A stretch of 25,713 bases of DNA from Candidatus Brocadiia bacterium (GTDB lineage Bacteria; Planctomycetota; Brocadiia; SM23-32): positions 1-25,713 of the forward strand of contig JBKHIT010000066.1 of the NCBI GenBank assembly GCA_046538485.1, given 5' to 3'. How positions within the stretch are numbered: position 1 is the stretch's first letter; every line of letters starts with the position of its first letter. Under the pieces are notes generated by a model. The model was given only the letters and a program-made list of their open reading frames with translations, made no database searches and was not told the DNA's origin. This document shows, one piece after another, positions 3,268 through 25,021 of this stretch. The position numbers were made by a program, and so were the translations under genes.

Positions 3268-5258
3268 TGTCCCCTCCTTGCGGCGTAACGTTTGGCCCGG
3301 AGATAGCGTGCTATGGCGAGCACAAGTGCGATGAGCAGCACCGCGGCCGGCGCCCAGACCATATTGTGGGTTTGGAGACTGGCTTTCAGCGATTCTATCC
3401 TTTTGCGTTCATCGGCTCTGAGCTTTCGCAGTTGCCTTCTGGCTTTACTTATTTCCGTGTAAATTTCTTGTCGCTCTTTCACAGCCTGGCTCTGGAGCAA
3501 TTCTCCATCCCCCCCGGCGCTGGCAAGTTGTTGCAGTCTGGCTTCGTATTCCTGAATCTTTTTCTCCAGAGCGTCGACTTCTTCGGCCGTCGCTTCCTCA
3601 GCTTCTGCCTCGATTTTATCCACCACTTCGAACGGCCTCTGGAACTTGCCCCGCGACCGAATGGAGATAAGATTGCGGTTACCGGCCAGGAATTCAATGG
3701 CGTTCAGCACAAGGGCGGGGTTGTCCCCCTTCGCGCTTTTCCCGAAGAAAGTATCCTGGTAAGCAATCATATCGGAGATCATATCGACATCTGAGAAAAC
3801 CAGCACTGCGGTTTCCGAAGAAGCGACCTGGACCACCTCAGGCTCTTTGGTTTCTTCGTCCTCTTCGGGCTCCTTCTCTGTATCGGATTTTTCCGCCTCT
3901 GGATCCGTCTCTTCTCCGCCCTCCTCCGGCTCTTCTTCTTCAGTTACCGGCGGGCCGTCGGGGTAATTTGTCCTCAGTTTTCCTTCGATACGGCATCCCA
4001 ACATCACGGGTTCGTCTCCGGGGGTATAACCCCGGCGGATCGCACCCGCGTCGAGCATTCGCACTTCCATCGGGTTGGTAGGAGCCCACTCGTTGCCTTC
4101 GGGAGTTGTGTACATCAGCGGTGTAACGCTCACGTCCGGCTGCTCGACTTCCTTGAGAACTCCCGCAAATAGCATACGAAGAGAGTCGAGCTGCGCAGTG
4201 ATGACCTGGTTCTGGTTAAAATTACCTTCACTCAATTCCAGGTAGGTCAAGAGCGTTTGGGGCCGAGAGTTACGCCTCGGGGGCACTTTCAGCGCGAGGT
4301 TGTGGTCGGCCGCAAATTTTTCCATCTCCATCTCCACCCCCCACTGTCTCAGCAAACTGTTGAGCCCGGAGGAAGATTTCTGCTGCATCGCGGCCATCGG
4401 ATTCCTGGGATTTTGCTCGGGTCGATCGCTAAAGCAGAACGGATCGACAAAGACCAGCAATCGCCCCCCCTTCATGACGTATTGATCGATCGCAAAAAGC
4501 GTCTCTTCGGGCAGATCTTTTGGGTGGACGACCATCAGGAAATCGATATCATCTGCAATTTCATCCGTTTCTTCGTCGACGCCTGTCACCTCGTATTCTT
4601 CTTTCAGCCGCTCGACAATAGTCCAGGGTTCGGGAGGGCGGCGCCCCTGTTGCATCATCATCTGCCGCATGTAGGGCGACAGATCGGCACCGGCAACATC
4701 CAGCGAGGACAGCACACCGATTTTTTTCTTCTGACGACGAGTGACGTTCACGATGGCCCGCGAGATGTCATATTCCACGAGTTGCTGCCGACCGGGCTCG
4801 AAAAACTCAATGACCTCCTTTTCCCCCAATTCCGTCTCGACCACAAGCCCGAAAAAGAAACTCTCATTCCCGGAAAGTGGGAATTGTTTCACCCCGGCAT
4901 CAACGGCTTCTTTTTCCTCCTCGCTGAAAGGGCGGGGATCGACGACAGTATATGTGAGTCGCCCCCTCGAACGCTGGACGTATTCCTGGACCAGATCCCG
5001 GACGTAGACGAAATAGTTGTTATATTGCCGGATCTGCTCCGGACCTTTCATCGCCGCAGTGCGGGAATAGTAGAGTTTCAGATTCACGTGCTGCTTCAGA
5101 TCGGAAAGAATATTCTTCGTGCTTTTGGAAAGCGTGTAGAGTTTGTTCTCGGTTAAGTCCACGCCCGTCCGGCGCAACGCTTTCTGTGCGATGAGGATCG
5201 CGCACAGGGTGATAACGAGGATGCAGACAACTCCAATGTATGTTTTCAGTTTCTTCAT
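3264..5258 (-). CDS. GldG-family ABC transporter auxiliary component
   Basis: N- and C-terminal TM helices; DLTENKLYTLS, EYDISRAI, LMVVHPK, IDQYVMKGGRLLVFVDP, DVDMISD, LISIRSRG motifs; C-terminal coiled coil; translationally coupled on both sides. Confidence 0.88.
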   Translation of the reverse strand: MKKLKTYIGVVCILVITLCAILIAQKALRRTGVDLTENKLYTLSKSTKNILSDLKQHVNLKLYYSRTAAMKGPEQIRQYNNYFVYVRDLVQEYVQRSRGRLTYTVVDPRPFSEEEKEAVDAGVKQFPLSGNESFFFGLVVETELGEKEVIEFFEPGRQQLVEYDISRAIVNVTRRQKKKIGVLSSLDVAGADLSPYMRQMMMQQGRRPPEPWTIVERLKEEYEVTGVDEETDEIADDIDFLMVVHPKDLPEETLFAIDQYVMKGGRLLVFVDPFCFSDRPEQNPRNPMAAMQQKSSSGLNSLLRQWGVEMEMEKFAADHNLALKVPPRRNSRPQTLLTYLELSEGNFNQNQVITAQLDSLRMLFAGVLKEVEQPDVSVTPLMYTTPEGNEWAPTNPMEVRMLDAGAIRRGYTPGDEPVMLGCRIEGKLRTNYPDGPPVTEEEEPEEGGEETDPEAEKSDTEKEPEEDEETKEPEVVQVASSETAVLVFSDVDMISDMIAYQDTFFGKSAKGDNPALVLNAIEFLAGNRNLISIRSRGKFQRPFEVVDKIEAEAEEATAEEVDALEKKIQEYEARLQQLASAGGDGELLQSQAVKERQEIYTEISKARRQLRKLRADERKRIESLKASLQTHNMVWAPAAVLLIALVLAIARYLRAKRYAARRGQ

Positions 5259-5989
5259 CCTGCAGCCTTCCTTTCCTCAAGCGCCACAACGGTTGCCCAC
5301 AGCCAGCCCGCTGTCAGAAACACAAAGTACAGAATATCGCGAACCCGAATTATGCCTCTTTGAATCGACTCAAATCGGGTTCGGAAGCTGAGGCTCTCCA
5401 CAGCTTCCACAAGCCCCATCGAGAGCATGCCGCGCAGGTAATTCAGCACCGTAGGACTCGCCGCGAAGAGAAACAGCGCACAGACGACAACCGAAAGAAC
5501 AAAAGCAATAACCTGATTGCGGGTCAGGCTTGAGAAAAACCCTCCGATTCCGAGATAGGCTCCGGCCAGGAGGAACGAACCAACGTAGCCGGTGATTATC
5601 GGGCCGGGATCGGGATTGCCCAGATAGCAAACCGTAAACAGCATCGGGGCGGTAAGAACAAGCGCCAGCGCGATCACGCTCCAGGCCGCAAAAAATTTCC
5701 CCAAAACGGCCTGCGCGGCCGTTACCGGAAGTGTGAATAACAATTCAATTGAATTTGTATCTCTTTCCTCAGCCCACAACCGCATCGAAATGGCCGGTCC
5801 CAGAAAGATAAACAACAAAGGGATATTCGAGAAAAACAAGCGCATAGAAGCCTGACGCATCTCAAAAAAGCCCTGCTGGAACGTCAAAAAACTGCTGAAA
5901 AACAAGAATATGACAAGGAAAACATAGGCCAGAGGAGTTGAAAAATAGCCTCTCAACTCGCGTTTCAGGACGCTCGTGAAACCTCTCAT
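5255..5989 (-). CDS. ABC-2 type permease, GldF-like
   Basis: KRELRGYFSTPLAYVFL, PAISMRLWAEER, ELLFTLPV, LGKFFAAW, SSLTRNQVIAF; six hydrophobic segments. Confidence 0.92.
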   Translation of the reverse strand: MRGFTSVLKRELRGYFSTPLAYVFLVIFLFFSSFLTFQQGFFEMRQASMRLFFSNIPLLFIFLGPAISMRLWAEERDTNSIELLFTLPVTAAQAVLGKFFAAWSVIALALVLTAPMLFTVCYLGNPDPGPIITGYVGSFLLAGAYLGIGGFFSSLTRNQVIAFVLSVVVCALFLFAASPTVLNYLRGMLSMGLVEAVESLSFRTRFESIQRGIIRVRDILYFVFLTAGWLWATVVALEERKAAG

Positions 5990-6729
5990 TCCGCGCCTCC
6001 TTTCGCCGCCTTCACCTTCTGACTCGTAGTGAGTTTGCGAAACACCTCTTCAAGACTTCCCCCTTCGCGCTCCCGCAGATCCCCCGGAGTGCTGTCCACC
6101 AGAAGTTTCCCGCGGTCGATGATGATGATTCGGTTGCAGATGGCGTTAACCTCTTCGAGGATATGGGTTGAGACAACGATGCTCTTTCTTTGCGCCAGAT
6201 CCGTGATCAGTTCGCGCACGTCATGTTTCTGGTTGGGGTCAAGCCCATCGGTGGGTTCATCGAGAAGCAGCACCGGCGGGTCATGAACAAGTGACTGGGC
6301 CAGCCCTACCCGACGTCGGAACCCCTTTGAGAGAGTCCCGATCGGCTGGTGCATTACGTCGCCGATCGCGCAGGATTGGGCTGATTTCGCGATTTTCTTG
6401 CGCCGCTCCTTCCCCTTGATACCCCTGGCATCACAGACGAATCGCAGGAACGCCACGACCGTCATCTCATCGTAGGCCGGGGCATTCTCCGCCAGGTAGC
6501 CAACCCGCCGTCGCACCTCAACAGGATCATCAAGAATACTGTATCCTTCAATCTCCGCCGTGCCGCTATCGGGGGGGAAGAAACAACTCAAAATCTTCAT
6601 GGTCGTGGTCTTACCCGCACCATTCGGACCCAGAAACCCAAGCACGTCTCCCTTTTCTACCTTGAAAGAGACGCCGTCAACGGCTTTGATCGGTCCGAAG
6701 GACTTGTATAAATCAAGGGCCTCAATCAT
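5986..6729 (-). CDS. ABC transporter ATP-binding protein, GldA-like
   Basis: Walker A GPNGAGKTT, signature LSKGFRRR, Walker B LLLDEPT, H-loop STH. Start moved from 6798 to ATG 6729 (MIEALDL), which follows AAGGAGG. Confidence 0.93.
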   Translation of the reverse strand: MIEALDLYKSFGPIKAVDGVSFKVEKGDVLGFLGPNGAGKTTTMKILSCFFPPDSGTAEIEGYSILDDPVEVRRRVGYLAENAPAYDEMTVVAFLRFVCDARGIKGKERRKKIAKSAQSCAIGDVMHQPIGTLSKGFRRRVGLAQSLVHDPPVLLLDEPTDGLDPNQKHDVRELITDLAQRKSIVVSTHILEEVNAICNRIIIIDRGKLLVDSTPGDLREREGGSLEEVFRKLTTSQKVKAAKGGAE

Positions 6730-6931
6730 CGTTCCGTTCTGTCCTCCTTTGCCGATAGCTTCAGTTTTCCGTCTCCAACTTACAAAGGAACTGCACAATC
6801 TAAACTTTGGGATGCGGCTGCCAGTCGCCGCTCATAGGCAAGAGTTATCCATTACAATACAACATTACCTTCTGTCGCACTCTCTTCTGGTAAAGGCAAC
6901 ATTAAGCGCAATCGTTTCAAACGAATATTTC

Positions 6932-10500: not shown

Positions 10501-11211
10501 CTATTTGCCATCCCGGATAAGATGTTGCCGGTGCTGGTGGTAACCGTTGCGGATCGCCACATAGGGATCCAAAGCGTCTTCTTTTATACCCTCGTAATCC
10601 CCGATATGAAGAGAGATATAGTTCAGTTTATCGTAGAGAGGCAGGTAGTCTACGTAATTGGGGGGATATAGATAGCCATCGGCGATTTTTCCGATCGTGC
10701 CTCGAACTGAGGATGATCCCAGCACTGGCCACACCAAATAGAGCAACGGAGGCATTCCATAAAACCCCAGGGTCTGGCCAAAATCTTCTTTCTGCATTTT
10801 CAATCCCCATCCTGTGGCAACCTCTCCAAAGCCCAGCACCCCGACCGTTGTGTTGACTCCAAAACGTCCCAGCTCTATGCCTGTGCCCGAGATATCCCCC
10901 TGAAGAAGGCAATTAACTGCCCTGATAGGCATTCCAAGGTTCGAGAAAAAATTTTCGACACCCCGGCGGGCGATTTTTGGCACGATGGCAGAATAACCCT
11001 GAGCCACAGGTTTCAGGACCCAGAAGTACAACTTGTCATTGAAGACAAAAAACACGCGATTCACCGGTTCCAGGGGATCAGGGATCGGTTTAGGCCCCCG
11101 CTGCTGCATTTGTGCTTTCGCCCCTTCAGGTGAACTATTACCGGCGTTTCTTGTATTGGCACAACCCGCAGCAAACAGCAATAAAACGATCAGCAAAAGT
11201 GCTTTTTTCAT
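10501..11211 (-). CDS. mlaA: VacJ/MlaA family outer-membrane lipoprotein
   Basis: Lipobox AAGC; DPLEPVNR..F.FND, NFFSNL, RFGVNTTVG, EDFGQTLG, DPYVAIRNGY; GGAGG SD. Confidence 0.93.
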   Translation of the reverse strand: MKKALLLIVLLLFAAGCANTRNAGNSSPEGAKAQMQQRGPKPIPDPLEPVNRVFFVFNDKLYFWVLKPVAQGYSAIVPKIARRGVENFFSNLGMPIRAVNCLLQGDISGTGIELGRFGVNTTVGVLGFGEVATGWGLKMQKEDFGQTLGFYGMPPLLYLVWPVLGSSSVRGTIGKIADGYLYPPNYVDYLPLYDKLNYISLHIGDYEGIKEDALDPYVAIRNGYHQHRQHLIRDGK

Positions 11212-11253
11212 AACGGCCTCCGTAATTTGTGGCTTTTCTGACCAATCTCTGCG

Positions 11254-11922
11254 CTATTTTTTGACTTTCTTTTTTAATAGTTTAATCAATTTCTTATACG
11301 AACCTCCAACAATTATGTCGTTAAACTGTGAACGGTAATTATTGATCAAGCTTACTCCTTCCACTTTTACATCGTATATGAGCCATTCGGCAGCCTCTTC
11401 CTCATCTTTGTCCTTGGTCGCTTGATGAAGCCGGTATACAATAGGCACTTCCGTTCCATCTTTGGCCTTTCCCACCGCATTCACCGAAGCATAACCATCT
11501 TCCACTTCCTGTCCTTCGTAAACAATTTCCGCATCGGCGTGTTCTTCGATTCGTCTCAGGTATGTCTTCTCGACGAGACTCTGGAACAGGCTGACAAATT
11601 CTTTTCGTTCTTCCTCCGTGCGCGGACGCCAGTGCCGGGCCAGTGCACGCTGTGCTATGGCACGCCAGTCGAAGACGTCTTCGACGGCCTCTCGCACTTT
11701 CTGACGTCGCTCTTCTGTTTTCTTTTCCTTTTTCAACTCGGGATCACGCAGCACGTTAAGCACTTCTTCTGTGGTATCCTTGACGATCTCCTCCGGGGAT
11801 TTCATCTCCTTTTTTTTCTCTTTCTCTTTATTTTCTTCTCCCGCTCTCAGAGCCAGCAAAAAAGCGGAAAATGCAACAATAACCAGGATCCCAACCACCA
11901 CATGCTTCGTGTATCTCCTCAT
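11254..11922 (-). CDS. mlaC: MlaC/Ttg2D phospholipid-binding periplasmic protein
   Basis: FDWRAIAQRALARHW, EFVSLF, WLIYDVKVEGVSLINNYRSQF. Start moved to ATG 11922 (GAAAGGAG SD), which removes the overlap with mlaD. Confidence 0.92.
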   Translation of the reverse strand: MRRYTKHVVVGILVIVAFSAFLLALRAGEENKEKEKKKEMKSPEEIVKDTTEEVLNVLRDPELKKEKKTEERRQKVREAVEDVFDWRAIAQRALARHWRPRTEEERKEFVSLFQSLVEKTYLRRIEEHADAEIVYEGQEVEDGYASVNAVGKAKDGTEVPIVYRLHQATKDKDEEEAAEWLIYDVKVEGVSLINNYRSQFNDIIVGGSYKKLIKLLKKKVKK

Positions 11923-11953
11923 TGTCGTACTCCTTTCGTGGCTTGTCGCGGTA

Positions 11954-12400
11954 TTATTCTTCAACTTCCCCAAAAGCATATTTTGATATGAGAGATTCCA
12001 GATCGACCGCCGACTGTGTCTCACGAATCTGGCCCCCGGGCGGAATATTTTTCAAGGCCCCCCCCGGACTCAAAGCAATATACTTCTCGCCAATCAATCC
12101 GCGAGTTTTCACCGCCGCTATCGTATCTTCTGGAAGATCAATATCACCGCGGACCCAAAGACTTACTCTCGCCGTATAATCTTTGAGCGATACTTTCGTA
12201 ACTCGCCCGATATTGACCCCTGCAATGAACACAGGTGCTCCGCTGCGAAGGCCACCAATTTCACTGAACTTTGCCTTGACCTCGTAACCTTCCTTTTTGA
12301 AAACATCCACCCCGCCGAAACGGATCGACAGGTAAGCCAGGCACAGGACTCCTGCCAGAACAAAAAAGCCAGCTGTCAATTCGACATAGAATTTTTTCAC
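11954..12400 (-). CDS. mlaD: MCE-domain protein MlaD
   Basis: Single TM, then AKFSEIGGLRSGAPVFIAGVNIGRV, TRGLIGEKYIALSPGG, TQSAVDLESLISK; GTGA overlap with mlaF. Confidence 0.94.
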   Translation of the reverse strand: MKKFYVELTAGFFVLAGVLCLAYLSIRFGGVDVFKKEGYEVKAKFSEIGGLRSGAPVFIAGVNIGRVTKVSLKDYTARVSLWVRGDIDLPEDTIAAVKTRGLIGEKYIALSPGGALKNIPPGGQIRETQSAVDLESLISKYAFGEVEE

Positions 12401-13191
12401 TGTGTTTCCTCACTCGATCCCGGGAGATTTCTGAACATCTTCGCCGGTCTCCAGTAACGTTCAGGGGGCATACTGCCTTCAATGAATTTCCGGACCGGCT
12501 GATCGTCGCACTCCAGGACTTCCTCTGGCGTTCCTACAAACCTCATAACACCCTCATGCAACATAGCAACTTTGTCGACAATCGCAAAAATGTTCGGTAT
12601 TCGATGCGAAACGATAATCGCAGTCAGCCCCAGACGCTCCTGCAGAGAAGCGATGAGATCATGTATAGAATGCACAATAATCGGATCAAGCCCGGTTGTC
12701 GGTTCATCAAACAACATTACTTTCGGAGATTGTACCAGCGAGCGGGCCAATGCGGCTCGCTTTGCCATTCCACCACTGATTTGAGCCGGGTATTTTTCCT
12801 CTGAACCGAGCAAGCCCACATTTTCCAACTCTTCGAGAACTCGCCCCCTTATTTCATTTTCGCTCATTCGGGTGCATTCCCGCAAAGGAAAAGCGATATT
12901 GTCGTACACCGTCATCGACTCAAACAGTGCCCCGCCCTGAAACAAAAATCCGAGTCGCCCACGTAGTTTCTCAAGTTTCTTCCCATGCAAACGGGAAATG
13001 TCTTTCCCTTCAAAAAACACGTGCCCTTCGTCCGGCTGGAGCAGGCGAGCCAGGTGTTTCAAAAAAACCGTTTTACCGTCGCCGCTTCCACCAATAAGCG
13101 CGATCACTTGGCCTTCTTCGACCCGCAGAGAAGCCCCCCGGAGAACCTTCAGCGTTCCAAAAGACTTGTGCAGGTTTTTGGCTTCAATCAT
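12397..13191 (-). CDS. mlaF: ABC ATP-binding protein MlaF
   Basis: Walker A GGSGDGKT, LFQGGALFESMTVYDNIAFPLRE, ISGGMAKRAALAR, FDEPTTGLDP; operon context. Confidence 0.93.
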   Translation of the reverse strand: MIEAKNLHKSFGTLKVLRGASLRVEEGQVIALIGGSGDGKTVFLKHLARLLQPDEGHVFFEGKDISRLHGKKLEKLRGRLGFLFQGGALFESMTVYDNIAFPLRECTRMSENEIRGRVLEELENVGLLGSEEKYPAQISGGMAKRAALARSLVQSPKVMLFDEPTTGLDPIIVHSIHDLIASLQERLGLTAIIVSHRIPNIFAIVDKVAMLHEGVMRFVGTPEEVLECDDQPVRKFIEGSMPPERYWRPAKMFRNLPGSSEETQ

Positions 13192-13200
13192 CCTTTGCTC

Positions 13201-13995
13201 TCAGAAAAAAAACGATGTTAAGAAGTAATCCGAGACAAGAATCAAAACCGAGGAAAGCACTACCGCCTGAGTTGTCGAACGGCTTACGCCTTCCGAACCG
13301 AATCCAGCGTTGTAGCCTTTGTAACAGGAAACCCAGGCGATCAAACCTCCAAACGCAAGAGCTTTGTAACAGGAACCCCAAATATCGCTCATGCGCACAT
13401 AGTCCTCCATTTCTCCGAAATACACCCCCTTGCCAACTCCCAGCAAACCCACACCGACCAGATATCCTCCGCCAATCCCAACAGCATTGAAAATAGCTGT
13501 CAATAAAGGCATACAAAGCACCGCCGCGACCAGAACCGGCAACATAAGGTAACGGTGCGGGTTCAACCCCATCAGTTCCAGGGCATCTATCTCCTCATTG
13601 ATCCGCATAATCCCAATTTCCGCGGTGATGGCCGATCCCGCCCGGGCCACCACCATCAGGGCAGCGATAACAGGACCGAGTTCACGCAACAAGGATAAAG
13701 CGACCATCGGACCCAAAAAACCCGATGATCCGACCCTATGAAGCGTGTGAAAACTCTGGTATGACAGAACCATTCCCGTAAAAAGACCGGTCAAAACGAT
13801 CACCAGAAGGGACTGAAACCCAATGAATTCCATTCGTTTGATAAAACGTCCAATTTTCAAAGGGGGTAAAAGTAAAACGGTGAGAGTCTTTGCAAGGAAA
13901 ATTCCCATGCGACCGGTCTCGCGAGGAACCCACAGGGCCGCTCTACCGAGCCTGGCGACACGAGAAAGGATCGGATTTTGTTCGAAACCGCCCAT
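13201..13995 (-). CDS. mlaE: ABC permease MlaE
   Basis: RELGPVIAALMVVARAGSAITAEIGIMRINEEIDALELMGLNP, EGVSRSTTQAVV. Confidence 0.95.
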   Translation of the reverse strand: MGGFEQNPILSRVARLGRAALWVPRETGRMGIFLAKTLTVLLLPPLKIGRFIKRMEFIGFQSLLVIVLTGLFTGMVLSYQSFHTLHRVGSSGFLGPMVALSLLRELGPVIAALMVVARAGSAITAEIGIMRINEEIDALELMGLNPHRYLMLPVLVAAVLCMPLLTAIFNAVGIGGGYLVGVGLLGVGKGVYFGEMEDYVRMSDIWGSCYKALAFGGLIAWVSCYKGYNAGFGSEGVSRSTTQAVVLSSVLILVSDYFLTSFFF

Positions 13996-14995: not shown

Positions 14996-15628
14996 ATGTT
15001 CCTGTTTCGCGGAAACGGTCCAAAAAAGAAGCGCGTCTTGTCCGCGATCATTTTGCCCGTAATCGCAAGCTTTTTCTACGTAAGCTGCGCGACCAAAACA
15101 AGGAACGTGCAACGTAAGAGACGGCCGAAGACAACAGATGGCCCGATTGAAACTCCCGAGATAGATATACAGGATTTTCGTAAAGCATCGTCTCGCCTGG
15201 TTGAAAACCTGTCCAAGAGCTTTGATTTCCACAAAGGAAAAGGCGAAACAAATACGGTGGCTGTAGGACAAGTGCGTAATAATACTGCCTTAAAAATCCA
15301 ACCACATTTACTGACGACCAAATTCGAAATGGAAATTGCAAAACGGCAGGATGCAGAAGTTTATGCCGGCCCCGATATAATTGCCCAACAATGGGTTAAG
15401 CGGGCAAGAGAGATGACTGAGTCGCCGCAAACCACTAAAAACGCACTTTCCGAAATCGGCAATACGCGCCCACCGAAATACGTCCTGATCGCTGATATTC
15501 TTGAACGCGATCAACAACACAAAGGCGTAAAACAAAACACCTACGTATTTCAGGCACGGATCTTCGATATCGAGAAGAACGCCTACCCGTGGGTTGACGA
15601 GGTGACGATTATTGAAAAAAAGAAGTAA
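14996..15628 (+). CDS. lpoB: Penicillin-binding protein activator LpoB-like lipoprotein
   Basis: Lipobox-like YVSC; QDFRKASSRLVENL, VAVGQVRNNT, YVFQARIFDIEKNAYPWVDE; pairing with ycfL. Confidence 0.65.
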   Translation: MFLFRGNGPKKKRVLSAIILPVIASFFYVSCATKTRNVQRKRRPKTTDGPIETPEIDIQDFRKASSRLVENLSKSFDFHKGKGETNTVAVGQVRNNTALKIQPHLLTTKFEMEIAKRQDAEVYAGPDIIAQQWVKRAREMTESPQTTKNALSEIGNTRPPKYVLIADILERDQQHKGVKQNTYVFQARIFDIEKNAYPWVDEVTIIEKKK

Positions 15629-15871: not shown

Positions 15872-18445
15872 ATGCCCGAAAAGGTTTACAGCGTTACATT
15901 GGCAGCCGGCTCCGGCAACCGTATGCCTGACCACATGCCTCCCAAATCGTGTTGTCGGATCGGCCCCGTTACAATCATTGAAAACGCTCTGAGATCCTAC
16001 GAAGAAGCAGGTATAACCAAACATGTCGTCGTGGTCGGCTGTGACGCTACCAAAGTCATGAAAGAGATCCGCCGTACGGGCCGCCAGGTGCTCTTTGCCT
16101 ATCAGCCTGAGCCGCGAGGAACCGGTGATGCTGTTGCCCAGGCGCTCGAACTGCTTCACGCGGAGGGTTCCCCTGACCATATTCTCATATCATCAGGTGA
16201 TAAAATGGTGGCTCCCCGCGTCCTTCGAGGTCTGGTCGAGCTATATGCCGAGTCTGATTGTCACATGGCACTTGTTGGTGGTTTAGCCCGGCATAATCCG
16301 ACGGGTGGTCGAATTGTGGCTGAGAACGGTTTCGCCCGTGCAATCCTGGAATGGCCTGACATTCGACTCCGGCAGCTTGCCGCCCATTTGCGTTCACTTC
16401 CTGATACGGAAAAACCTGGCACCGGAAATGAGTTTCGGAAGCTTGTGCGAGATTTCCACGACCGTCCCGGAAAACTCGCCGCTCGCAGGCCAAAACTTCA
16501 GAGGTTATTGGAAGCAGAACCACAGGAGCAAATTACCCCTGCAGAAATAGCAGCCGCCCTGGAAGATGTGCCGGGGGACTTTCAGCTCCCAGGAGGGTCA
16601 CTCCCTGCCGAGCAGGCGGCTAATTCAGAATTGTCAAACCTCAGCCTTTACGCCGGCGCTTTCAAAGATTTATGGCAGGCTGTCAGGAAACTCGGCGCGG
16701 AAAATGTCCAGGGGGAATGTTATTTCACCGACGTTGTAGAGAACCTTGTAGCCACAGGTAGGAAAGTCCGTATCTTCACGGTGCAGGATCCCGAACAAGT
16801 AATGGCGTTCAACACAGCCGAAGAACTCGAGGCAGTGCGTCGGGTGCATGCTTTGCGAACCAGCGAAAAAACACGGTACCCTGATCTGCAGGAGTGGGGA
16901 AAACAATTTTCAAAACCCGAACAGGATGGTCTTGCTTGCCGAGCTGCGCGAGGTCTGGCCGACAAAATCGATGCCAACAGGCAAGCCATCGTTGTGCGTT
17001 CTCCCGGACGTATCAATCTGATGGGCCGACATATTGACCACCAGGGCGGGACATGCAACCTGATGGCCATAAACAGGGAAATTGCACTTGTAGCATCGCC
17101 AAGAGAAGATGATCGCATCAATCTCTGGAACGCAGAAAGCACATCTTACCCCCGGAGGAGCTTTTCCTTCGAAGAATTGACCAGGGACATCATCTGGGAA
17201 GACTGGTTGAAAACACTGAATTCGCAGTTCGTGCAACGCATGGCCGCTCAAAATCCCGGGGACTGGTCGAACTACATCAAAGGCGCAGCTTTACGATTGC
17301 AGCACCGATTCCGGGAAAGAAAACTGCGTGGCATGGACGCCTGCATATGCGGGAATATACCCGTGGGAGCAGGGCTCAGCTCGTCTTCCGCGCTGGTCGT
17401 CGCCGCCGCCGAGGCCCTCTGCGAATTGAATGCCCTCAACGTCCAGGCAAAAGAATTCGTGGACCTTTGTGGCGAAGGAGAGTGGTTCGTCGGAACCCGC
17501 GGCGGGAGTGGAGATCATGCGGCCATCAAGTTCGGCAAAGAAAGAGAGGTCGTCAGCGTAAAATTCTTCCCATTCGAGGTGGCCGCCCGACATCCTTTTC
17601 CCCGTGACCAACGTGTAATGGTTTGCTATTCTGGCATCAGCGCAAAAAAAACTGAAAATGCCCGCTCGCGGTTCAACTCGCGCGTTGCGTGCTACCACAT
17701 GGGCAGAGAACTCATCCGAAAGCAGCATCCGAGCCTCGCACCACATGTAAAACACCTGCGTGACCTCGATCCTGCCCTGCTCGGGATCTCGTATCCGGCC
17801 TTTTACCAGATCCTGAGAACCTTGCCCCAGTCGGTCGGCTGGGAAAATGCCCAAAGGCTCGCAGCTGACTCCGAGGATGTGTCGAAATGCCTGGAAGGAC
17901 TCGCACCGGCGGAAAACAGTTTCCCGGTAAGAGATGTCGTTCTGTTCGGCCTGGCCGAATGCAGTCGGGCGCGGATGGCCGGAAGCTTACTTGACCGGGG
18001 CGATCTCGAAACGTTCGGCGAACTCATGAAAATATCGCACGATGGCGACCGTGTGATGCGATGGGGCGAGGATCAAAAAGAGTGGTGCTTTTCCGCTACC
18101 GACGAACGTCTGCTCAATCTTGAAAAAAAGGCCAGCAAGGCCCAACCTCTACAGGATTCAAACTCGGCCCTCTGGCAACAGCCCGGCGGTTACCGCTGCA
18201 GCACATCGGAAATCGACCAAATGGTGGATATTGTGCTCACGTCCCCCGGCGTCATAGGAGCGCAACTCGCGGGAGCAGGCCTCGGCGGATGTATTATGGT
18301 CCTGCTGGAAAGGGGAGCAGAAGAACACGTGCGTGAAGTACTTGTCGAAAAATACTACGAACCCGCGAATATCGAGCCACAACTGTTTGTGTGCGAGCCT
18401 TCAAGAGGCAGCCGGGTCCTGACAACGTTGCAACCCGTAAATTGA
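15872..18445 (+). CDS. Bifunctional GlmU-like sugar-1-phosphate nucleotidyltransferase / GHMP (galactokinase-family) sugar kinase
   Basis: N-domain: LAAGSGNRM..PK, QPEPRGTGDAV, SGD, GGRIV, NVQGECYFTDVV, FNT..EL. C-domain: SPGRINLMGRHIDHQGG, WSNYIKG, IPVGAGLSSSSA, GGSGDH, FGELMKISH, GAQLAGAGLGGC. No GlmU acetyltransferase hexapeptide domain. Confidence 0.88.
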   Translation: MPEKVYSVTLAAGSGNRMPDHMPPKSCCRIGPVTIIENALRSYEEAGITKHVVVVGCDATKVMKEIRRTGRQVLFAYQPEPRGTGDAVAQALELLHAEGSPDHILISSGDKMVAPRVLRGLVELYAESDCHMALVGGLARHNPTGGRIVAENGFARAILEWPDIRLRQLAAHLRSLPDTEKPGTGNEFRKLVRDFHDRPGKLAARRPKLQRLLEAEPQEQITPAEIAAALEDVPGDFQLPGGSLPAEQAANSELSNLSLYAGAFKDLWQAVRKLGAENVQGECYFTDVVENLVATGRKVRIFTVQDPEQVMAFNTAEELEAVRRVHALRTSEKTRYPDLQEWGKQFSKPEQDGLACRAARGLADKIDANRQAIVVRSPGRINLMGRHIDHQGGTCNLMAINREIALVASPREDDRINLWNAESTSYPRRSFSFEELTRDIIWEDWLKTLNSQFVQRMAAQNPGDWSNYIKGAALRLQHRFRERKLRGMDACICGNIPVGAGLSSSSALVVAAAEALCELNALNVQAKEFVDLCGEGEWFVGTRGGSGDHAAIKFGKEREVVSVKFFPFEVAARHPFPRDQRVMVCYSGISAKKTENARSRFNSRVACYHMGRELIRKQHPSLAPHVKHLRDLDPALLGISYPAFYQILRTLPQSVGWENAQRLAADSEDVSKCLEGLAPAENSFPVRDVVLFGLAECSRARMAGSLLDRGDLETFGELMKISHDGDRVMRWGEDQKEWCFSATDERLLNLEKKASKAQPLQDSNSALWQQPGGYRCSTSEIDQMVDIVLTSPGVIGAQLAGAGLGGCIMVLLERGAEEHVREVLVEKYYEPANIEPQLFVCEPSRGSRVLTTLQPVN

Positions 18446-18636: not shown

Positions 18637-19350
18637 ATGCCATTGAAATATTTAATTACAAAACACAAATGTAAACGAATCCCCTCTCGCCTGACCTTTT
18701 TGCTCGCTACTTTTTTGCTGTTTTTGCCATGGCTTTCGGGATGCAGAGGGTTCTGGAAACAGTATGACATCTATTCCACCGGCGGCCCGGTCTCAGATAA
18801 ACATGCCCCTGGAACCCTCGACGGCAAAATATGCGTCCTCGGCGCACGCGTCCCCACCGGCAGCGAAGGCTATCAAAATACTGCTTCCGACCTGCTGACA
18901 TCGGTCCTGCGGAAACATTTGGCCGATGCAGAAGATTCTTCCCGCGTCGTCTCTTATGCCCAATTTCTCAATGAAATCAACCGCAAAGGACTTGTCGGGG
19001 AATACATTGAGTTGACGGAAATATATCAAATAACTGATTTGTACCCAAAAGCTCTGCTCCGCATCCTCCATGAAAAATTGGGAATACGGTATTTTGTCAA
19101 ACCTGCCCTGTTGCAACTGGACCAGAGTTCAGATGTCAGGCTCAGCGTTTGGGGACTCAGGCTGATCGTAACCAAAGAAACCAACGCAAAAGTCTCTCTG
19201 GAAATCTGGGACGCGCGGATCGGCTCCAAGGTATGGACCGGCGCAGCAGGCTGCACAATCGCCGGGGAAAAGCTTAGCCAACGGCGAATTGCACCCCAAA
19301 AAGCAATTGATGATGCCTGGCGTGAACTCCTGGAAAAAATTTTTGAATAG
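18637..19350 (+). CDS. Hypothetical lipoprotein, possibly CsgG/LpoB-like fold
   Basis: Basic N-region, hydrophobic stretch, lipobox LSGC; C-terminal VSLEIWDARIGSKVWTG resembles that fold. Fold call is inference. Confidence 0.65.
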   Translation: MPLKYLITKHKCKRIPSRLTFLLATFLLFLPWLSGCRGFWKQYDIYSTGGPVSDKHAPGTLDGKICVLGARVPTGSEGYQNTASDLLTSVLRKHLADAEDSSRVVSYAQFLNEINRKGLVGEYIELTEIYQITDLYPKALLRILHEKLGIRYFVKPALLQLDQSSDVRLSVWGLRLIVTKETNAKVSLEIWDARIGSKVWTGAAGCTIAGEKLSQRRIAPQKAIDDAWRELLEKIFE

Positions 19351-21170: not shown

Positions 21171-21290
21171 TGTGGAGCTCCTCAGCAGTTGACAACCATC
21201 CGACTTGATTTCTCACCGTTCAAAGATATTATAGGTTACCAGTGATGCGTTTAAAGTATATTCCCGAAGATAAGGGAGGAGGTGGCGATT

Positions 21291-23519
21291 ATGAAGAATA
21301 AGATGGTGTGTTTTGTAGCATTTTTTCTGCTGGGAATGATTCCGCTGAAAACATACGGCGCTCCCCTTCTACTCGTTGAAAACGGACAGGCTAAAACAAA
21401 AATTTTCCACGCCGGTGACGCCCCCAGAGCGGCCAAAGACCTCGCGGCCAATGTCCAGAAGATGTCAGGGGATAAAATGCAAATCCAACAAACTGCCGAT
21501 AAAAATGAAATCCCCAAAAACACACCCGCTATCGTGGTCGGCTCCCTCACCGTGAAAACCGGCCTGAACGCCCCACCCAAAACCCGTTCCGGCGACGGCT
21601 ATCGCGTGCTGCGCCGCGGCAATCTGCTCTTAATGGCGGGGGAGACTCCGCGTTCTACTTTCTATGCCACCAGTCATTTTCTTGAATCCCTGGGATGCAG
21701 ATGGTTCTTCGGCAATCCGCTCGGCACCGTCATTCCGAACAAAAAGACCATCGCGGTTGAAAAACTCGACGTCGCGGAAAAACCCGATTTTATCTCCCGA
21801 AGAGTCTGGGGACCAAATTGGCACGGCCCAAAACCGTGGCACCGCCACAACCGCGTTGGCGGTCTGTCCATGTCCGCAGGCCACGACTGGGGTCACGTCC
21901 CCCCGAAAAAATACGCCGAAGAGCACCCCGAGTATTACACCCTCCGTGGCGGCAAAAGACGCCCGGGCAACTGGCTCTGCACATCCAACAAAGACGTGCA
22001 ACGTATTTTCGCCGATTCCATCATCAAAAACGTCAAAGGTAAAGGCACCACCAGTGTATCTATCTCCCCACCGGATGGCCGGGGTTATTGCCAGTGTGAA
22101 AAGTGTCGCGCCCTCGACGATCCTGATTATCGCGAACCCTCCTCGGGTCATGTGGTGATAACCGATCGATATATGCGGTTCTTTAATGCCGTCGCAAAAC
22201 CAGTCCGTAAAGCCAACCCCGATGCGATTCTGAATTTTTACGCCTACGCCGACTATTCCCGCCCTTCGAAACATGTCAAAACCGCGCCGGATAACCTCTG
22301 CGTCTGGGTGGCTCCTATCCGATACTGCCGTTTCCATAGTCTGCTGAGCCCGATCTGCGAGGACCGCCAGCGCCTCCGCAAAGAACTGGACACCTGGATG
22401 AGCGTCGTCTCAAAAATGGGCTGGCGCGAATACAATTACAACCTCGCCGAAGCAACCGTCCCCTTCAGTAAAATCAGCCTCTGGGCTAAAGATATCCCCT
22501 ATCTCCACCGGATCGGCTGTATCGGTGTGAACATCGAATCTCTCTATCTCTGGCATATCTACGGTCCCCATACCTACCTCATCCCCCGACTGTTATGGGA
22601 TGCCGAGGCCGATGTCGATGCCATAATGGATGATTTCTACACGAAATTCTGCGGGGGCGCCGCTCCCCACGTCAAAGCCTACTGGGAACGTATCGATAAA
22701 GCCTACCAGACGACCGATACACACGTGGGCTCCTTCTACGGAATCCACGAAATCTGGACGCCAGAACTGGTCAAGGCCTGCCAGGCCGATCTCAAGGCCG
22801 CGGCCAAAGTCGCCAAAAGAGATATCACAAGAAAAAGAGTCGAAATGTTCCAGATGGGACTCGACAACGTCAAATATTTCAGAGACCTGAGGGAAGCAAC
22901 CAACCGGTGCGATTTCCACAAGGCGAAAGAAATATACGACGCATGGCTGGCACATATGGACGCTGTCAACAAGAAAAAAATCCATTACATCGGCGAGTAC
23001 CGACGGGGCTACGTCCCTCGCTTCCTCGGGAAAGTAGTCAAACAGGGCTACGAGTGCACGACCGGGAATAACAAATTGCTCGTTCGCCTGCCGGATACGT
23101 GGCTGTTCCGCTACGATCCCGACGATAAGGGAGAGAAAAAAGGCTGGCACACCCCCGGCGCGGACAAAAAAGGCTGGAAAGAGGTTCGCACGTATTCCGC
23201 CACGCTCTCCGAACAAGATGTGGAAGAACAGCTGACCTGGATGTGGTATCGGACCGAAATTCAGGCCCCCAAACCGCCGGGGAACAAACGCCTGATGCTC
23301 TGGGTGGGCGAGGTCGACGGACGCCCGACGAAGGTTTTCCTCAACGGGAAACTCGTGGGCGAAACGCGTGCAAAACGCCGTCCCTTCGAAATGGAGGTGA
23401 CCGATCGTCTCCAGAAGGGCAAAAATACAATTGCCCTGAAAATCGACCATCACAACATCTCCGAGCTGCATCTCGGGGGTTTGATCAAGCCATGCATGAT
23501 CTACTCCGCGCCAAAATGA
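21291..23519 (+). CDS. Secreted DUF4838-domain protein with C-terminal sugar-binding (GH2-N-like) jelly-roll
   Basis: GGAGGAGGT SD favours ATG 21291; signal peptide; FLESLGCRWF, EHPEYYTL, LCTSN, SPPDGRGYCQCEKC, YAYADY, LLWD..DVDAIMDDFY..F.G.AA; C-terminal WYRT..GEVDG..VFLNGKLVG. Confidence 0.85.
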   Translation: MKNKMVCFVAFFLLGMIPLKTYGAPLLLVENGQAKTKIFHAGDAPRAAKDLAANVQKMSGDKMQIQQTADKNEIPKNTPAIVVGSLTVKTGLNAPPKTRSGDGYRVLRRGNLLLMAGETPRSTFYATSHFLESLGCRWFFGNPLGTVIPNKKTIAVEKLDVAEKPDFISRRVWGPNWHGPKPWHRHNRVGGLSMSAGHDWGHVPPKKYAEEHPEYYTLRGGKRRPGNWLCTSNKDVQRIFADSIIKNVKGKGTTSVSISPPDGRGYCQCEKCRALDDPDYREPSSGHVVITDRYMRFFNAVAKPVRKANPDAILNFYAYADYSRPSKHVKTAPDNLCVWVAPIRYCRFHSLLSPICEDRQRLRKELDTWMSVVSKMGWREYNYNLAEATVPFSKISLWAKDIPYLHRIGCIGVNIESLYLWHIYGPHTYLIPRLLWDAEADVDAIMDDFYTKFCGGAAPHVKAYWERIDKAYQTTDTHVGSFYGIHEIWTPELVKACQADLKAAAKVAKRDITRKRVEMFQMGLDNVKYFRDLREATNRCDFHKAKEIYDAWLAHMDAVNKKKIHYIGEYRRGYVPRFLGKVVKQGYECTTGNNKLLVRLPDTWLFRYDPDDKGEKKGWHTPGADKKGWKEVRTYSATLSEQDVEEQLTWMWYRTEIQAPKPPGNKRLMLWVGEVDGRPTKVFLNGKLVGETRAKRRPFEMEVTDRLQKGKNTIALKIDHHNISELHLGGLIKPCMIYSAPK

Positions 23520-23557
23520 ACCGCGAATAAGCCCTGATTAAAAATCCGGGATCTACC

Positions 23558-25021
23558 GTGAAACTGGATGAAATCCCACTTCTGCCGCAAGACGAATCGC
23601 TGATTCCGCGTATCTCCCGCGAAAATCTGTCCTTCTCCCCTGAACAGGTCTGGAGCCCCAGCCCGTCAGTCCATCATCGCACGACCCCCTACCCCGTCCC
23701 CAAAACGTTACGGCAGGGACTACGCGTCACCGTGGAGACGGGAGCCAAGTTCTCCCCCCCACCGTTCGCCGCCATCGTCGAGGGCGATGACCATCGCGTC
23801 CTGATCGGGGTGGAAGCGGATGCAGGATGGCACCTCTGGAATTTTATCGACTTCACCGTCACCGAAAAAAGCGCTGAAATCCGGATCGATCTGGAAGGAC
23901 ACAGCGATCCGGCCGAGGTCGCTGAACATGTGCGTGTCGTGCTGGCCAGAAGCCCAGAAGACGAGCCGAGGATGGGCCTGCTTGCCCGGACGATGCGCGA
24001 ATTATACCCCGAAGGGACCAGTGCACAGGAACAGATCCCCGACTGGTGGCTCAGACCCATTTACTGCGGATGGGCGGATCAGGTCGCGCAAGCAAAGTAC
24101 GAAAACGGTGCCCGCGCAGGAGGCGGTGGGCGGTACTGCACTCGAAAGCTCTACGAACGGTGGATCGAACGGCTTGAAGAGGCGGAACTGCCGATCGGCA
24201 CGGTCATTCTGGACGCGGGCTGGGCCACCGGCGTGTGGGAACCGGATCCCGAAAAATGGCCGGACCTGAAAGGTTTTATCACCTCCCAGCACAACGCCGG
24301 TCGAAAAGTGCTGCTGTGGATCGGCACCTGGGTCTGCGGCGGGGTCCCCGCTGAATTGTGCGTTATGGCCGGTAACCGAAAAATATGCGTTGATCCCACC
24401 AACCCCCAATACCGTTCTCTGATCCGGGAACGGATCGAGGAATTGCTCTCGCCTGAAGGTTACGACGCCGACGGGTTCAAAATCGATCAATTGGGGCGAC
24501 CGCCGTCCGAGCGGCCCGCGAAATCGCCAAAATACGCCCACCTGCCGGCTTATCACGAAGAACAGGAAAATCTCCTGCAAATCCATGGCGACCGCTGGGG
24601 ATGTGAGCTCCTGCATCTTCACCAGGCCGATTTCCACCGGGCGGCCGTCGCAGCCAAACCCGACGCCCTCCTGACCAGCAGCACCGTTCATCCCTACTTT
24701 CACGATACCTTCGGAATGGTCCGGCTGCATGACACCGGGAAGTTCGAAGGCGATATCATGGATGTGATGGGGGCTCGGGCGGACCTTTCACGCGCCGCAC
24801 TGCCCGGCAAACCGATCGACACCGACAACTGGATCAGCCGAAACTACGATATGTGGTTGCGCTACACCTGCAACAGCTACAGGCTCGGGGTACCCTGTAT
24901 TCTTTATTCCGAGAGATTCATCGAAAACTGGGAAGAAGAACCCGCGACCCGCCCCATCCCCATGGAAGACCTGCGCGAGATAGCGCGCACCTGGCGCGAG
25001 AACTATATGCACGCATCGTGA
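23558..25021 (+). CDS. Clan GH-D (GH27/31/36-like) alpha-glycosidase, no signal peptide
   Basis: YCGW, VILDAGW, PDPEKWPDLKGFI, KVLLWI, DPTNP, DGFKID (nucleophile-like), RLHD (acid/base-like). Confidence 0.78.
   Translation: MKLDEIPLLPQDESLIPRISRENLSFSPEQVWSPSPSVHHRTTPYPVPKTLRQGLRVTVETGAKFSPPPFAAIVEGDDHRVLIGVEADAGWHLWNFIDFTVTEKSAEIRIDLEGHSDPAEVAEHVRVVLARSPEDEPRMGLLARTMRELYPEGTSAQEQIPDWWLRPIYCGWADQVAQAKYENGARAGGGGRYCTRKLYERWIERLEEAELPIGTVILDAGWATGVWEPDPEKWPDLKGFITSQHNAGRKVLLWIGTWVCGGVPAELCVMAGNRKICVDPTNPQYRSLIRERIEELLSPEGYDADGFKIDQLGRPPSERPAKSPKYAHLPAYHEEQENLLQIHGDRWGCELLHLHQADFHRAAVAAKPDALLTSSTVHPYFHDTFGMVRLHDTGKFEGDIMDVMGARADLSRAALPGKPIDTDNWISRNYDMWLRYTCNSYRLGVPCILYSERFIENWEEEPATRPIPMEDLREIARTWRENYMHAS

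Follow-up and report, generated by a model that had tools for sequence, protein, structure and literature searches.

A GlmU-type nucleotidyltransferase fused to a galactokinase-type GHMP kinase with an invariant arginine: a putative one-protein sugar-activation enzyme

Results

A two-domain fusion gene in a Brocadiia contig

We analysed a stretch of 25,713 nucleotides from a Candidatus Brocadiia bacterium (GenBank assembly GCA_046538485.1, contig JBKHIT010000066.1; hereafter the window), in which one gene encodes a GlmU-type sugar-1-phosphate nucleotidyltransferase joined to a GHMP kinase of the galactokinase type. The gene (15872-18445, forward strand) is an uninterrupted open reading frame (ORF) that opens with ATG and runs for 857 codons and a stop, giving a protein of 857 residues. 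It very likely encodes a two-step route from a free sugar through the sugar-1-phosphate to a nucleoside diphosphate sugar, because both halves keep their catalytic motifs, are co-inherited across phyla and stand in the same domain order as in two known fusions, FKP and zebrafish GKUP. An initial annotation, made from the sequence alone, had described a continuous 857-residue frame with both sets of catalytic motifs intact; the ORF list, Pfam and the conserved motifs agree with it, and its description of the sequence was correct in each detail that we checked.

All Pfam matches of the protein lie above the gathering scores. In the N-terminal half these are NTP_transf_3 (residues 9-171, E 4.7e-10) and NTP_transferase (8-145), and in the kinase half GalKase_gal_bdg (371-410, E 4.1e-13), GHMP_kinases_N (467-555, E 1e-15) and GHMP_kinases_C (762-829, E 5.8e-11). 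The protein belongs to the GHMP superfamily, with 58.2 bits to PF00288, 43.1 bits to PF08544 and invariant motifs II and III. An AlphaFold2 model built on 66 homologues (alignment A2) has a mean predicted local distance difference test (pLDDT) score of 90, no segment below 50 and a predicted template modelling score (pTM) of 0.75; it resolves into a transferase domain of alpha/beta type (about residues 1-335), a linker made of two helices (339-365) and a kinase domain (about 370-857). Within the linker, Trp342 is invariant in alignment A1 and at least 90% conserved in A2.

The kinase half carries an arginine in place of the signature glutamate

Nucleotides 16997-17056 of the window translate to RSPGRINLMGRHIDHQGGTC, in which the codon CGA encodes Arg386. 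A phmmer alignment with human galactokinase pairs PGRINLMGRHIDHQGG with PGRVNLIGEHTDYNQG and therefore places Arg386 on the signature glutamate (Glu43) and His390 on the signature tyrosine, so that the galactokinase signature G-R-x-N-L-I-G-E-H-x-D-Y is broken at both positions. The two replacements had been read from the letters in the initial annotation, and the DNA and the alignment bear them out. In human GALK1, Glu43 meets the C6 hydroxyl of galactose.

The arginine is fixed in the family. It is present in all 66 aligned full-length homologues and, among 236 family proteins gathered, in all 234 that cover the position (the other two are truncated at the N-terminus and lack it), and the proposal built on Arg386 thus came through a conservation survey that had been set beforehand as its test. 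His390 is replaced by Tyr or Trp in five of the 234. Across the 66 sequences the conserved kinase residues are R380, R386, H387, D389, H390, motif II, D548 and motif III. Arg380 (63/66) and Asp548 (66/66) align with the Arg of P-G-R and the Asp of G-x-x-D in GalK and GALK2, positions that we take to be the catalytic pair of GalK-type kinases. A second arginine, Arg543, lies five residues before the presumed catalytic Asp548 and is found in 66/66 sequences of alignment A2; the aligned counterparts of its loop are GTEGGGMDQ in GALK2 and GVPCGILDQ in Pyrococcus furiosus GalK, and the residue stands where GALK2 has a glutamate. The fused kinase has arginines at two places where the substrate-site loops of GALK2 have glutamates. 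The fused kinase also has an H-[IV]-D-H-Q motif in common with a bacterial galacturonokinase-like family.

The nearest relatives of known structure are galactokinases. Sequence matches in PDB include GALK2 (2a2c, 1.5e-25) and P. furiosus GalK (1.6e-25), and the top Foldseek matches are human GALK1 (E 2.7e-25, template modelling (TM) score by target 0.83), GALK2, yeast Gal1p and archaeal galactokinases; GALK2 (PDB 2a2c/2a2d), GALK1, Gal1p and archaeal GalK have the same fold at E values of about 1e-24 and TM scores by target of 0.78-0.86. A look-up in the ESM Atlas returned only clusters of the same family or generic galactokinase clusters. The P-G-R-x-N signature, motifs II and III and an Asp-containing catalytic loop are common to the fused kinase and to galactokinases and GALK2, and the GT-x-GG-x-x-D loop and an F-N-x-R-V segment are common to it and GALK2. 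However, the fused kinase is only about 21-22% identical to GALK1, GALK2 and Gal1p, is joined to a transferase and is about 100 residues larger, of which some 40 form an insertion that separates S-H-D-G-D-R from Tyr774. The best-scoring curated models for the whole protein are galactokinase models, yet it scores below their cut-offs (156.3 bits versus 226.65 for TIGR00131; 58.8-158.2 bits versus 385-509 for the other galactokinase equivalog models).

The transferase half resembles GlmU but lacks its acetyltransferase domain

Among the transferase models listed, GlmU is the best match for the N-terminal domain, which is GlmU-like and not GalU-like. The GlmU models of NCBIfam cover GlmU positions up to about 165 plus a second stretch (E 2.6e-27 to 1e-8), with scores of 34-96 bits against cut-offs of 367-725 (for example, 82.8 versus 366.85 for TIGR01173). 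In the alignment with Streptococcus pneumoniae GlmU, residues 6-155 and 258-327 of the fusion correspond to GlmU 4-149 and 171-240, with a gap at an insertion (about residues 161-252) whose helices in the AlphaFold2 model span 161-175, 185-193, 199-213 and 223-229. Acidobacteriota forms of the fusion match GlmU positions 2-240 in a single stretch, so the insertion is short or absent there.

The GlmU-type segments aligned in this way are LAAGxGxRM...K25, Q78...GTG, GD110, GR147IV and NxQGExYxTD (278-287). Across the 66 sequences, R17, K25, Q78, G83, T84, D110, G146, E160, N256, Y260, N278, Q280, E282, Y284, D287 and N314 are invariant or at least 90% conserved at GlmU-aligned positions; in the first signature G13 and R17 are each present in 61/66 (five gaps each), and M18 and K25 in 66/66. 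No hexapeptide (Hexapep), LbH or acetyltransferase family was detected by Pfam in the 857 residues. The domain thus keeps the uridylyltransferase motifs of GlmU, as had been read from the letters, but differs from GlmU in lacking the left-handed beta-helix acetyltransferase half with its hexapeptide repeats, in the insertion of about 85 residues, and in the residue after Asp110. This residue, 111, is always basic (Lys in 52/66, Arg in 14/66), where S. pneumoniae GlmU reads AGDTP and has a threonine. The coordinates of the features are collected in Table 1.

Table 1. Features of the fusion gene in the window, with the evidence for each
Feature	Position	Strand	Evidence
Whole gene, 857 codons and stop	15872..18445	+	ORF list; 100% self-match; full-length homologues of 36-59% identity; AlphaFold2 model
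N-terminal GlmU-type sugar-1-phosphate nucleotidyltransferase domain, residues 1-335, without acetyltransferase half	15872..16876	+	Pfam, NCBIfam, GlmU alignment
Nucleoside triphosphate (NTP)-binding signature L10-A-A-G-x-G-x-R17-M ... K25	15899..15946	+	Alignment A2; pairs with GlmU LAAGKGTRM...K
Lys111, directly after conserved Asp110 (GD-K/R)	16202..16204	+	Alignment A2; S. pneumoniae GlmU alignment
Mostly helical insertion of about 85-90 residues (165-252) within the transferase domain	16364..16627	+	Gap in GlmU alignment; AlphaFold2 model
Two-helix linker, residues 336-369	16877..16978	+	AlphaFold2 helices 339-346 and 353-365
C-terminal GalK/GALK2-like GHMP kinase domain, residues 370-857, enlarged to about 490 residues	16979..18442	+	Pfam, PDB sequence matches, Foldseek
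Galactokinase signature region PGRINLMGRHIDHQGG	16982..17101	+	Pfam PF10509 at 371-410; human GALK1 alignment
Arg386 codon CGA, replacing the signature Glu	17027..17029	+	DNA sequence, GALK1 alignment, family conservation
GHMP motif II (phosphate-binding loop) P497-V-G-A-G-L-S-S-S-S-A507	17360..17392	+	P497, G501, L502, S505 and S506 invariant in alignment A1; Pfam GHMP_kinases_N
Loop G541-T-R543-G-G-S-G-D548-H549 with presumed catalytic Asp548 and Arg543	17492..17518	+	Alignment A2; GALK2 and P. furiosus GalK alignment
GHMP motif III G801-A-G-L-G-G-C807	18272..18292	+	G801, G803, G805 and G806 invariant; Pfam GHMP_kinases_C

The fusion is widespread and accessory

The homologue search scored 1601 relatives among 8000 candidates passed on from 5.8 billion proteins. 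The full-length fusions listed are about 840-940 residues long and 36-59% identical to the query, and those that bear a name appear as 'galactokinase family protein', 'NTP transferase domain-containing protein' or, for many members under the automatic naming of JGI, 'N-acetylgalactosamine kinase'. Scanning one genome per species gave at least 599 matching stretches, of which 588 were confirmed, so that the full-length fusion occurs in a minimum of 588 species, spread over many phyla. The 80 loci kept for context come from Planctomycetota (including Brocadiaceae and Phycisphaerae), Chloroflexota, Verrucomicrobiota, Acidobacteriota, Armatimonadota, Clostridia and Actinomycetota, and also from Lentisphaeria (among them a record that bears the name Victivallis vadensis), Bifidobacteriaceae, Aminicenantes, Sumerlaeota, Hydrogenedentota, TA06 and Spirochaetales. 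Shorter, kinase-only proteins with the arginine also exist, and many of these are plainly truncated gene calls.

Among the genome of the window and 20 relatives, the fused form (open frames of 873-1007 residues) is present in 7/21 and any kinase-domain match at E<=1e-20 in 11/21, so the fusion is an accessory and not a core gene. In one class-level relative, the full fusion gene has immediately upstream of it a kinase-only paralogue, a 638-residue frame with 40% identity to the kinase half (G023:C4:13886-17962).

We found no characterised member of the family, and no natural fusion of the GHMP-GlmU type, in the full-text literature, a search that left subscription journals mostly outside; this agrees with the earlier suggestion that no bacterial route of this kind had been described. 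A search of the literature on the PDB entry 'AbGHMP' (9ulx) returned no paper.

Other sugar kinases in the genome of the window

The genome assembly of the window (5.19 Mb in 143 contigs, 88.3% complete) encodes several further GHMP kinases. One is a canonical galactokinase (344.8 bits, GEHTDY). A second, SPYRICPIGAHIDHQLGE, is a stand-alone galacturonokinase-like kinase (G000:C143:55708-57030, reverse strand; L102:7711-9030) that adjoins an FtsW/RodA gene. Its relatives are common in metagenome-assembled genomes of Brocadiia type, and 81 of the 120 listed carry G-A-H-[IV]-D-H-Q under a strict pattern; the motif was also seen in nine of ten further relatives that we inspected, a mix of pattern-unmatched and JGI-named proteins. 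JGI gives five of the 120 the name galacturonokinase or galactokinase/galacturonokinase. Plant galacturonokinase GalAK (At3g10700) presumably has this motif too, as the initial annotation had supposed, and the bacterial family lends that view indirect support. As in the fused kinase, this family has lost the signature glutamate and has H-[IV]-D-H-Q instead of H-T-D-Y; it differs in having Ala and not Arg at the glutamate position and in consisting of stand-alone proteins of about 400 residues (P-Y-R-x-x-P-L-G-A-H-[IV]-D-H-Q). By BLASTP, the fused kinase scores 54 bits to the galacturonokinase-like kinase of its own genome versus 100 bits to the canonical GalK.

The closest paralogue of the fused kinase is a 503-residue protein with Lys at the glutamate position (GKHTDY; GTFGGSQDH). 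It lies amid three sulfatase genes, in the order sulfatase, sulfatase, kinase, sulfatase, followed by an APH-family kinase, an SMP-30/gluconolactonase-like gene and a DegT aminotransferase (G000:C92:829-8136, L104); this cluster may encode a pathway that handles a sugar freed from sulfated glycans. A 478-residue GHMP kinase, GRLDVMGGIADYSGS (G000:C143:86178-87614, reverse strand; L103), stands in a same-strand run with RNase H-like, GlgC, GHL6-type glycoside hydrolase and PfkB kinase genes, and we take its motif to be of the plant L-arabinokinase-like type.

Gene neighbourhood

In the window, the fusion gene is flanked by genes for an LpoB-like lipoprotein (14996-15628) and an unassigned lipoprotein (18637-19350), with intergenic gaps of 243 and 191 bp, and it seems to form a transcription unit by itself, although scans of its surroundings for promoters and terminators returned sites no more numerous than in shuffled sequence.

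Across the family, the idea of a conserved operon partner was rejected: when 827 ORFs of the window and the 80 loci were compared all against all by BLAST, no neighbour family other than the fusion itself occurred in more than eight loci; a cluster of nine loci turned out to be an artefact of antisense ORFs over the fusion gene. For the survey of neighbour functions, we compared two ORFs per side from the 72 sources in which the fusion gene was recovered (235 proteins, in addition to the separately scanned neighbours in the window) with Pfam; nine loci in which the fusion gene was split, or lay under a longer ORF on the opposite strand, were dropped. NagA lies directly downstream on the same strand in five of the 72 loci (L007, L027, L032, L039 and L057), and three of these NagA neighbours score 209-238 bits to TIGR00221 of NCBIfam against a cut-off of 226. 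Nucleotide-sugar dehydrogenases of the type acting on uridine diphosphate (UDP)-N-acetylmannosamine (ManNAc) or UDP-N-acetylglucosamine (GlcNAc) are found in four (L012, L015, L024 and L030, the last TviB-like at 502 bits), and NAD-dependent epimerases in three, one of them TviC-like (L010, 324 bits). Genes of polysaccharide assembly (Wzx, Wzy, Wzz, GT4 and a WecB-type 2-epimerase) surround the fusion in L030, L070 and L079. Hexapeptide acetyltransferases occur in four loci, LpxA in two and GH78-like rhamnosidases in four, and a 511-residue major facilitator superfamily transporter is encoded upstream in four loci of Acidobacteriota or Aminicenantes. Amino-sugar neighbours are more numerous than those of uronate pathways. 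The latter are the KduI-KduD pair, which immediately follows the fusion in L071, a PcRGLX-like gene in L069 and, in L073, a gene resembling heparinase II/III. A sulfatase adjoins the fusion in L004, and neighbours of cell-wall type are a YkuD L,D-transpeptidase in L013 and an Amidase_3 gene in L066.

Elsewhere in the window, we detected a complete Mla-type lipid transport set (MlaA, MlaC, MlaD, ABC ATPase and MlaE; 10501-13995, reverse strand) and an ABC-2 transporter (ATPase and permease) with ABC_transp_aux/DUF7088, followed by a fusion of DUF4340 with a PpiC-type rotamase, in a GldA/F/G-like layout (1780-6798, reverse strand). Some 3 kb downstream of the fusion (21282-25021, forward strand) lie two glycoside-hydrolase-like genes, one with DUF4838 and a GH2-type sugar-binding domain and the other with a weak match to a GH31 TIM barrel, and between the fusion and these two genes an AMP-binding enzyme is encoded on the other strand.

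Discussion

Proposed function and substrate

We favour, on balance, the reading of the fusion as a cytoplasmic, self-contained two-step sugar-activation enzyme for a 2-acetamido hexose derivative. From the architecture, motifs, conservation and distribution described above, we infer both activities, the use of UTP, the class of the sugar and its charge. The C-terminal GHMP kinase would phosphorylate the anomeric hydroxyl of a free sugar with ATP, with Arg380 and Asp548 as its presumed catalytic pair, and the N-terminal GlmU-type transferase would convert the sugar-1-phosphate and UTP into UDP-sugar and pyrophosphate. UTP is the expected nucleotide because the transferase is GlmU-like and keeps Q78 and G83, whose positions in GlmU presumably bear on UTP use. 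At least 588 species retain both halves in one full-length protein, which argues that the two halves work together.

The substrate is probably of N-acetylhexosamine type, since a 2-acetamido sugar is favoured by the motifs that the transferase has in common with GlmU, by the loops that resemble those of GALK2 and by the neighbouring amino-sugar genes; the acidic and the neutral members of this class each receive about half of that weight, so that either taken singly is a tentative assignment. Arg386, Arg543 and Lys/Arg111, the last next to the metal-binding Asp of the transferase domain, stand at positions that line the substrate sites of homologous enzymes and are predicted from the alignment to face the pocket. 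These three fixed basic residues, together with the H-x-D-H-Q motif of the galacturonokinase-like family, favour an anionic group at or near C6, and within the 2-acetamido reading we lean slightly towards N-acetylglucosaminuronic, N-acetylgalactosaminuronic or N-acetylmannosaminuronic acid (GlcNAcA, GalNAcA or ManNAcA) over neutral GlcNAc or N-acetylgalactosamine (GalNAc). The suggestion of an anionic sugar goes back to the initial annotation, and it gains from Arg543 (Glu in GALK2) and Lys/Arg111 (Thr in GlmU) as further basic residues.

An N-acetylhexosaminuronic acid (HexNAcA) would satisfy both cues and would make sense next to TviB- and TviC-like genes and in loci for extracellular polysaccharide. 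It is accordingly conceivable, though doubtful, that the fusion is a dedicated bacterial salvage enzyme for such acids or for another 2-acetamido sugar with an anionic C6. In such a route, the acid sugar would enter in its free form and receive a phosphate at C1 in a GalK-type pocket lined with Arg, and the GlmU-type domain with its added Lys/Arg would yield UDP-HexNAcA directly, bypassing the UDP-HexNAc 6-dehydrogenase step. We know of no kinase for N-acetylhexosaminuronic acids in any organism, and our searches turned up none. The earlier proposal had been the salvage of a free uronate or of a HexNAcA. Its second half fits the NagA genes (5/72), the dehydrogenases (4/72) and the polysaccharide loci, which neutral GlcNAc or GalNAc fits equally; galacturonic acid (GalA) itself became less likely, because the same genome has a separate galacturonokinase-like kinase and because both domains of the fusion are GlmU- and GALK2-like.

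Several observations weigh against the assignment to a 2-acetamido, and especially an acidic, sugar. Arg543 is not universal outside alignment A2 (the loop of P0047 reads GDQAATADH). The two flanking lipoprotein genes of the window carry no sugar information, and no neighbour is conserved family-wide, the commonest neighbour family being found in 8/81 sources. An adjacent UDP-HexNAc dehydrogenase fits a supply of UDP-GlcNAc as well as it fits the salvage of an acid product. Co-occurrence with this dehydrogenase was considered and rejected as an argument: it is uninformative because the enzyme is present in 18/21 of the relatives whether or not they have the fusion, and it is missing from two carriers (G009 and G017).

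Alternative substrates and roles

Plain hexuronate salvage, in which GalA or glucuronic acid (GlcA) would pass through the sugar-1-phosphate to UDP-GalA or UDP-GlcA with Arg386 paired with the C6 carboxylate, seems unlikely to us. The replacement of the signature glutamate by Arg386, the H-x-D-H-Q motif, the KduI-KduD, heparinase-like and PcRGLX-like neighbours and the precedent of zebrafish GKUP, in which a uronate kinase and a pyrophosphorylase are described as joined in the same order (PMC3938481), would all be explained. However, the genome already holds a separate galacturonokinase-like kinase with Ala at the glutamate position, to which the fused kinase is no closer than to canonical GalK; the transferase half resembles GlmU and has retained the segment N-x-Q-G-E-x-Y-x-T-D; and amino-sugar neighbours outnumber those of uronate pathways.

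Another anionic sugar would also account for the three fixed basic residues, and here too we regard the chances as low. The candidates are N-acetylmuramic acid (MurNAc), whose lactyl carboxylate would be the anionic group and for which the fusion would be a GHMP/GlmU-type analogue of AmgK-MurU in the recycling of the cell wall, and a 6-sulfo sugar such as GlcNAc-6-sulfate, GalNAc-6-sulfate or sulfoquinovose. The MurNAc version can draw on scattered cell-wall neighbours, namely the LpoB-like gene in the window, the YkuD and Amidase_3 genes (L013 and L066) and NagA in five loci. It is opposed by Asp389 of the kinase and Glu160 of the transferase, each kept in 65/66 sequences; these align with what we take to be O3/O4-binding residues, and their conservation points to a free O3. 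The 6-sulfo version has the sulfatase that adjoins the gene in L004 and the closest paralogue, with Lys at the glutamate position, amid three sulfatases; but sulfatases are so common in these phyla that their adjacency means little, and we know of no use of a UDP-6-sulfo-HexNAc in bacteria.

It is very unlikely that the fusion makes a UDP-hexose from galactose or another neutral hexose by a route independent of the Leloir pathway, with Arg386 in a structural or catalytic role and not in sugar choice. The best-scoring curated models and the nearest folds are indeed those of galactokinases, but the protein falls below all of the model cut-offs, both signature residues, Glu and Tyr, are replaced throughout the family, a canonical GalK is encoded elsewhere in the genome, and the transferase half is GlmU-like and not GalU-like.

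Finally, the transferase half might be a housekeeping GlcNAc-1-phosphate uridylyltransferase that replaces a missing GlmU, with the kinase adding an entry for salvaged GlcNAc. No GlmU scores over the cut-off of TIGR01173 in any of the 21 genomes (that of the window and 20 relatives) or in five distant carriers, and in those five the fusion is the best, or among the best, matches to the GlmU N-domain. In one of them, a complete Acidobacteriota chromosome (G001), a UDPGP-type enzyme is also missing, and the other transferases are GalU-, MocA- or RmlA-like. Nevertheless, the fused form is present in only 7/21 relatives, and those without it also lack GlmU; a UDPGP-family pyrophosphorylase is present in 19/21 relatives and 4/5 carriers; and some genomes of the Acidobacteriota class (for example, G067 and G101) hold a canonical GlmU together with a fusion of about 850 residues. 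We rejected this role as the principal one, as GlmU and the fusion show no complementary pattern, and consider it the least probable of all.

In the sample of the Acidobacteriota class, canonical GlmU is present in 30 of 81 genomes (a count that includes one flagged as unpublished, G038), and 20 have no match at E<=1e-25. The GlmU forms in this class are the canonical one, transferase-only proteins of about 250-300 residues (about 240-270 bits) and forms of about 330 positions. The eukaryote-type UDPGP-family pyrophosphorylase (PF01704, frames of about 480-590 residues) is found in 19 of these 21 genomes (that of the window and its relatives) and in 0/14 control genomes, and the lineage of the window's genome may make UDP-GlcNAc and other UDP-sugars by this UAP/USP-like enzyme.

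Relation to known fusion and salvage systems

By their defining features, the fusion falls outside the galactokinase, GlmU, FKP and galacturonokinase-like families. In FKP, an N-terminal nucleotidyltransferase precedes a C-terminal GHMP anomeric kinase. Described as a bifunctional L-fucokinase/GDP-L-fucose pyrophosphorylase in Bacteroides fragilis and plants (FKP/FKGP), it resembles the fusion in that one polypeptide salvages a free sugar to a nucleotide sugar (PMC11982464). The two halves nevertheless come from other subfamilies, the fusion here being GlmU-like (and probably using UTP) with a galactokinase-type signature; Pfam gave no PF07959 or fucokinase match, and FKP is absent among the Foldseek matches listed. 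Zebrafish GKUP is described as a glucuronokinase with a putative UDP-GlcA pyrophosphorylase, proposed to act in uronic acid salvage, and likewise has an N-terminal bacterial-type nucleotidyltransferase and a C-terminal GHMP sugar-1-kinase (PMC3938481). According to that description, it differs in being eukaryotic, in its glucuronokinase-type kinase of about 357 residues and in a pyrophosphorylase that is itself putative (PMC3938481). For a combined uronate kinase and pyrophosphorylase, as the initial annotation envisaged, GKUP is a eukaryotic precedent (PMC3938481).

The same two-step logic for 2-acetamido sugars is followed by two systems of separate enzymes. AmgK and MurU together carry out the anomeric salvage of MurNAc. 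NahK with GlmU or AGX1 is described as doing so for HexNAc (PMC9875253). Unlike the fusion, NahK and AmgK have the APH and not the GHMP fold and are separate proteins. By analogy, the fusion would work like the FKP/GKUP class, combining a known kinase and pyrophosphorylase logic with other subfamilies and a distinctive, invariant active-site signature.

Implications

If both activities are confirmed, the fusion would be a new and very widespread type of one-protein sugar-activation enzyme, and it would provide a function for genes whose current annotation reads galactokinase family protein or NTP transferase domain-containing protein. The switch from Glu to Arg would be a clean determinant of specificity in the galactokinase fold. 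Should the substrate be an acidic amino sugar, the family would represent an unknown recycling route for the uronic amino sugars of capsules and cell walls, and would offer a one-enzyme catalyst for UDP-HexNAcA donors that are hard to make.

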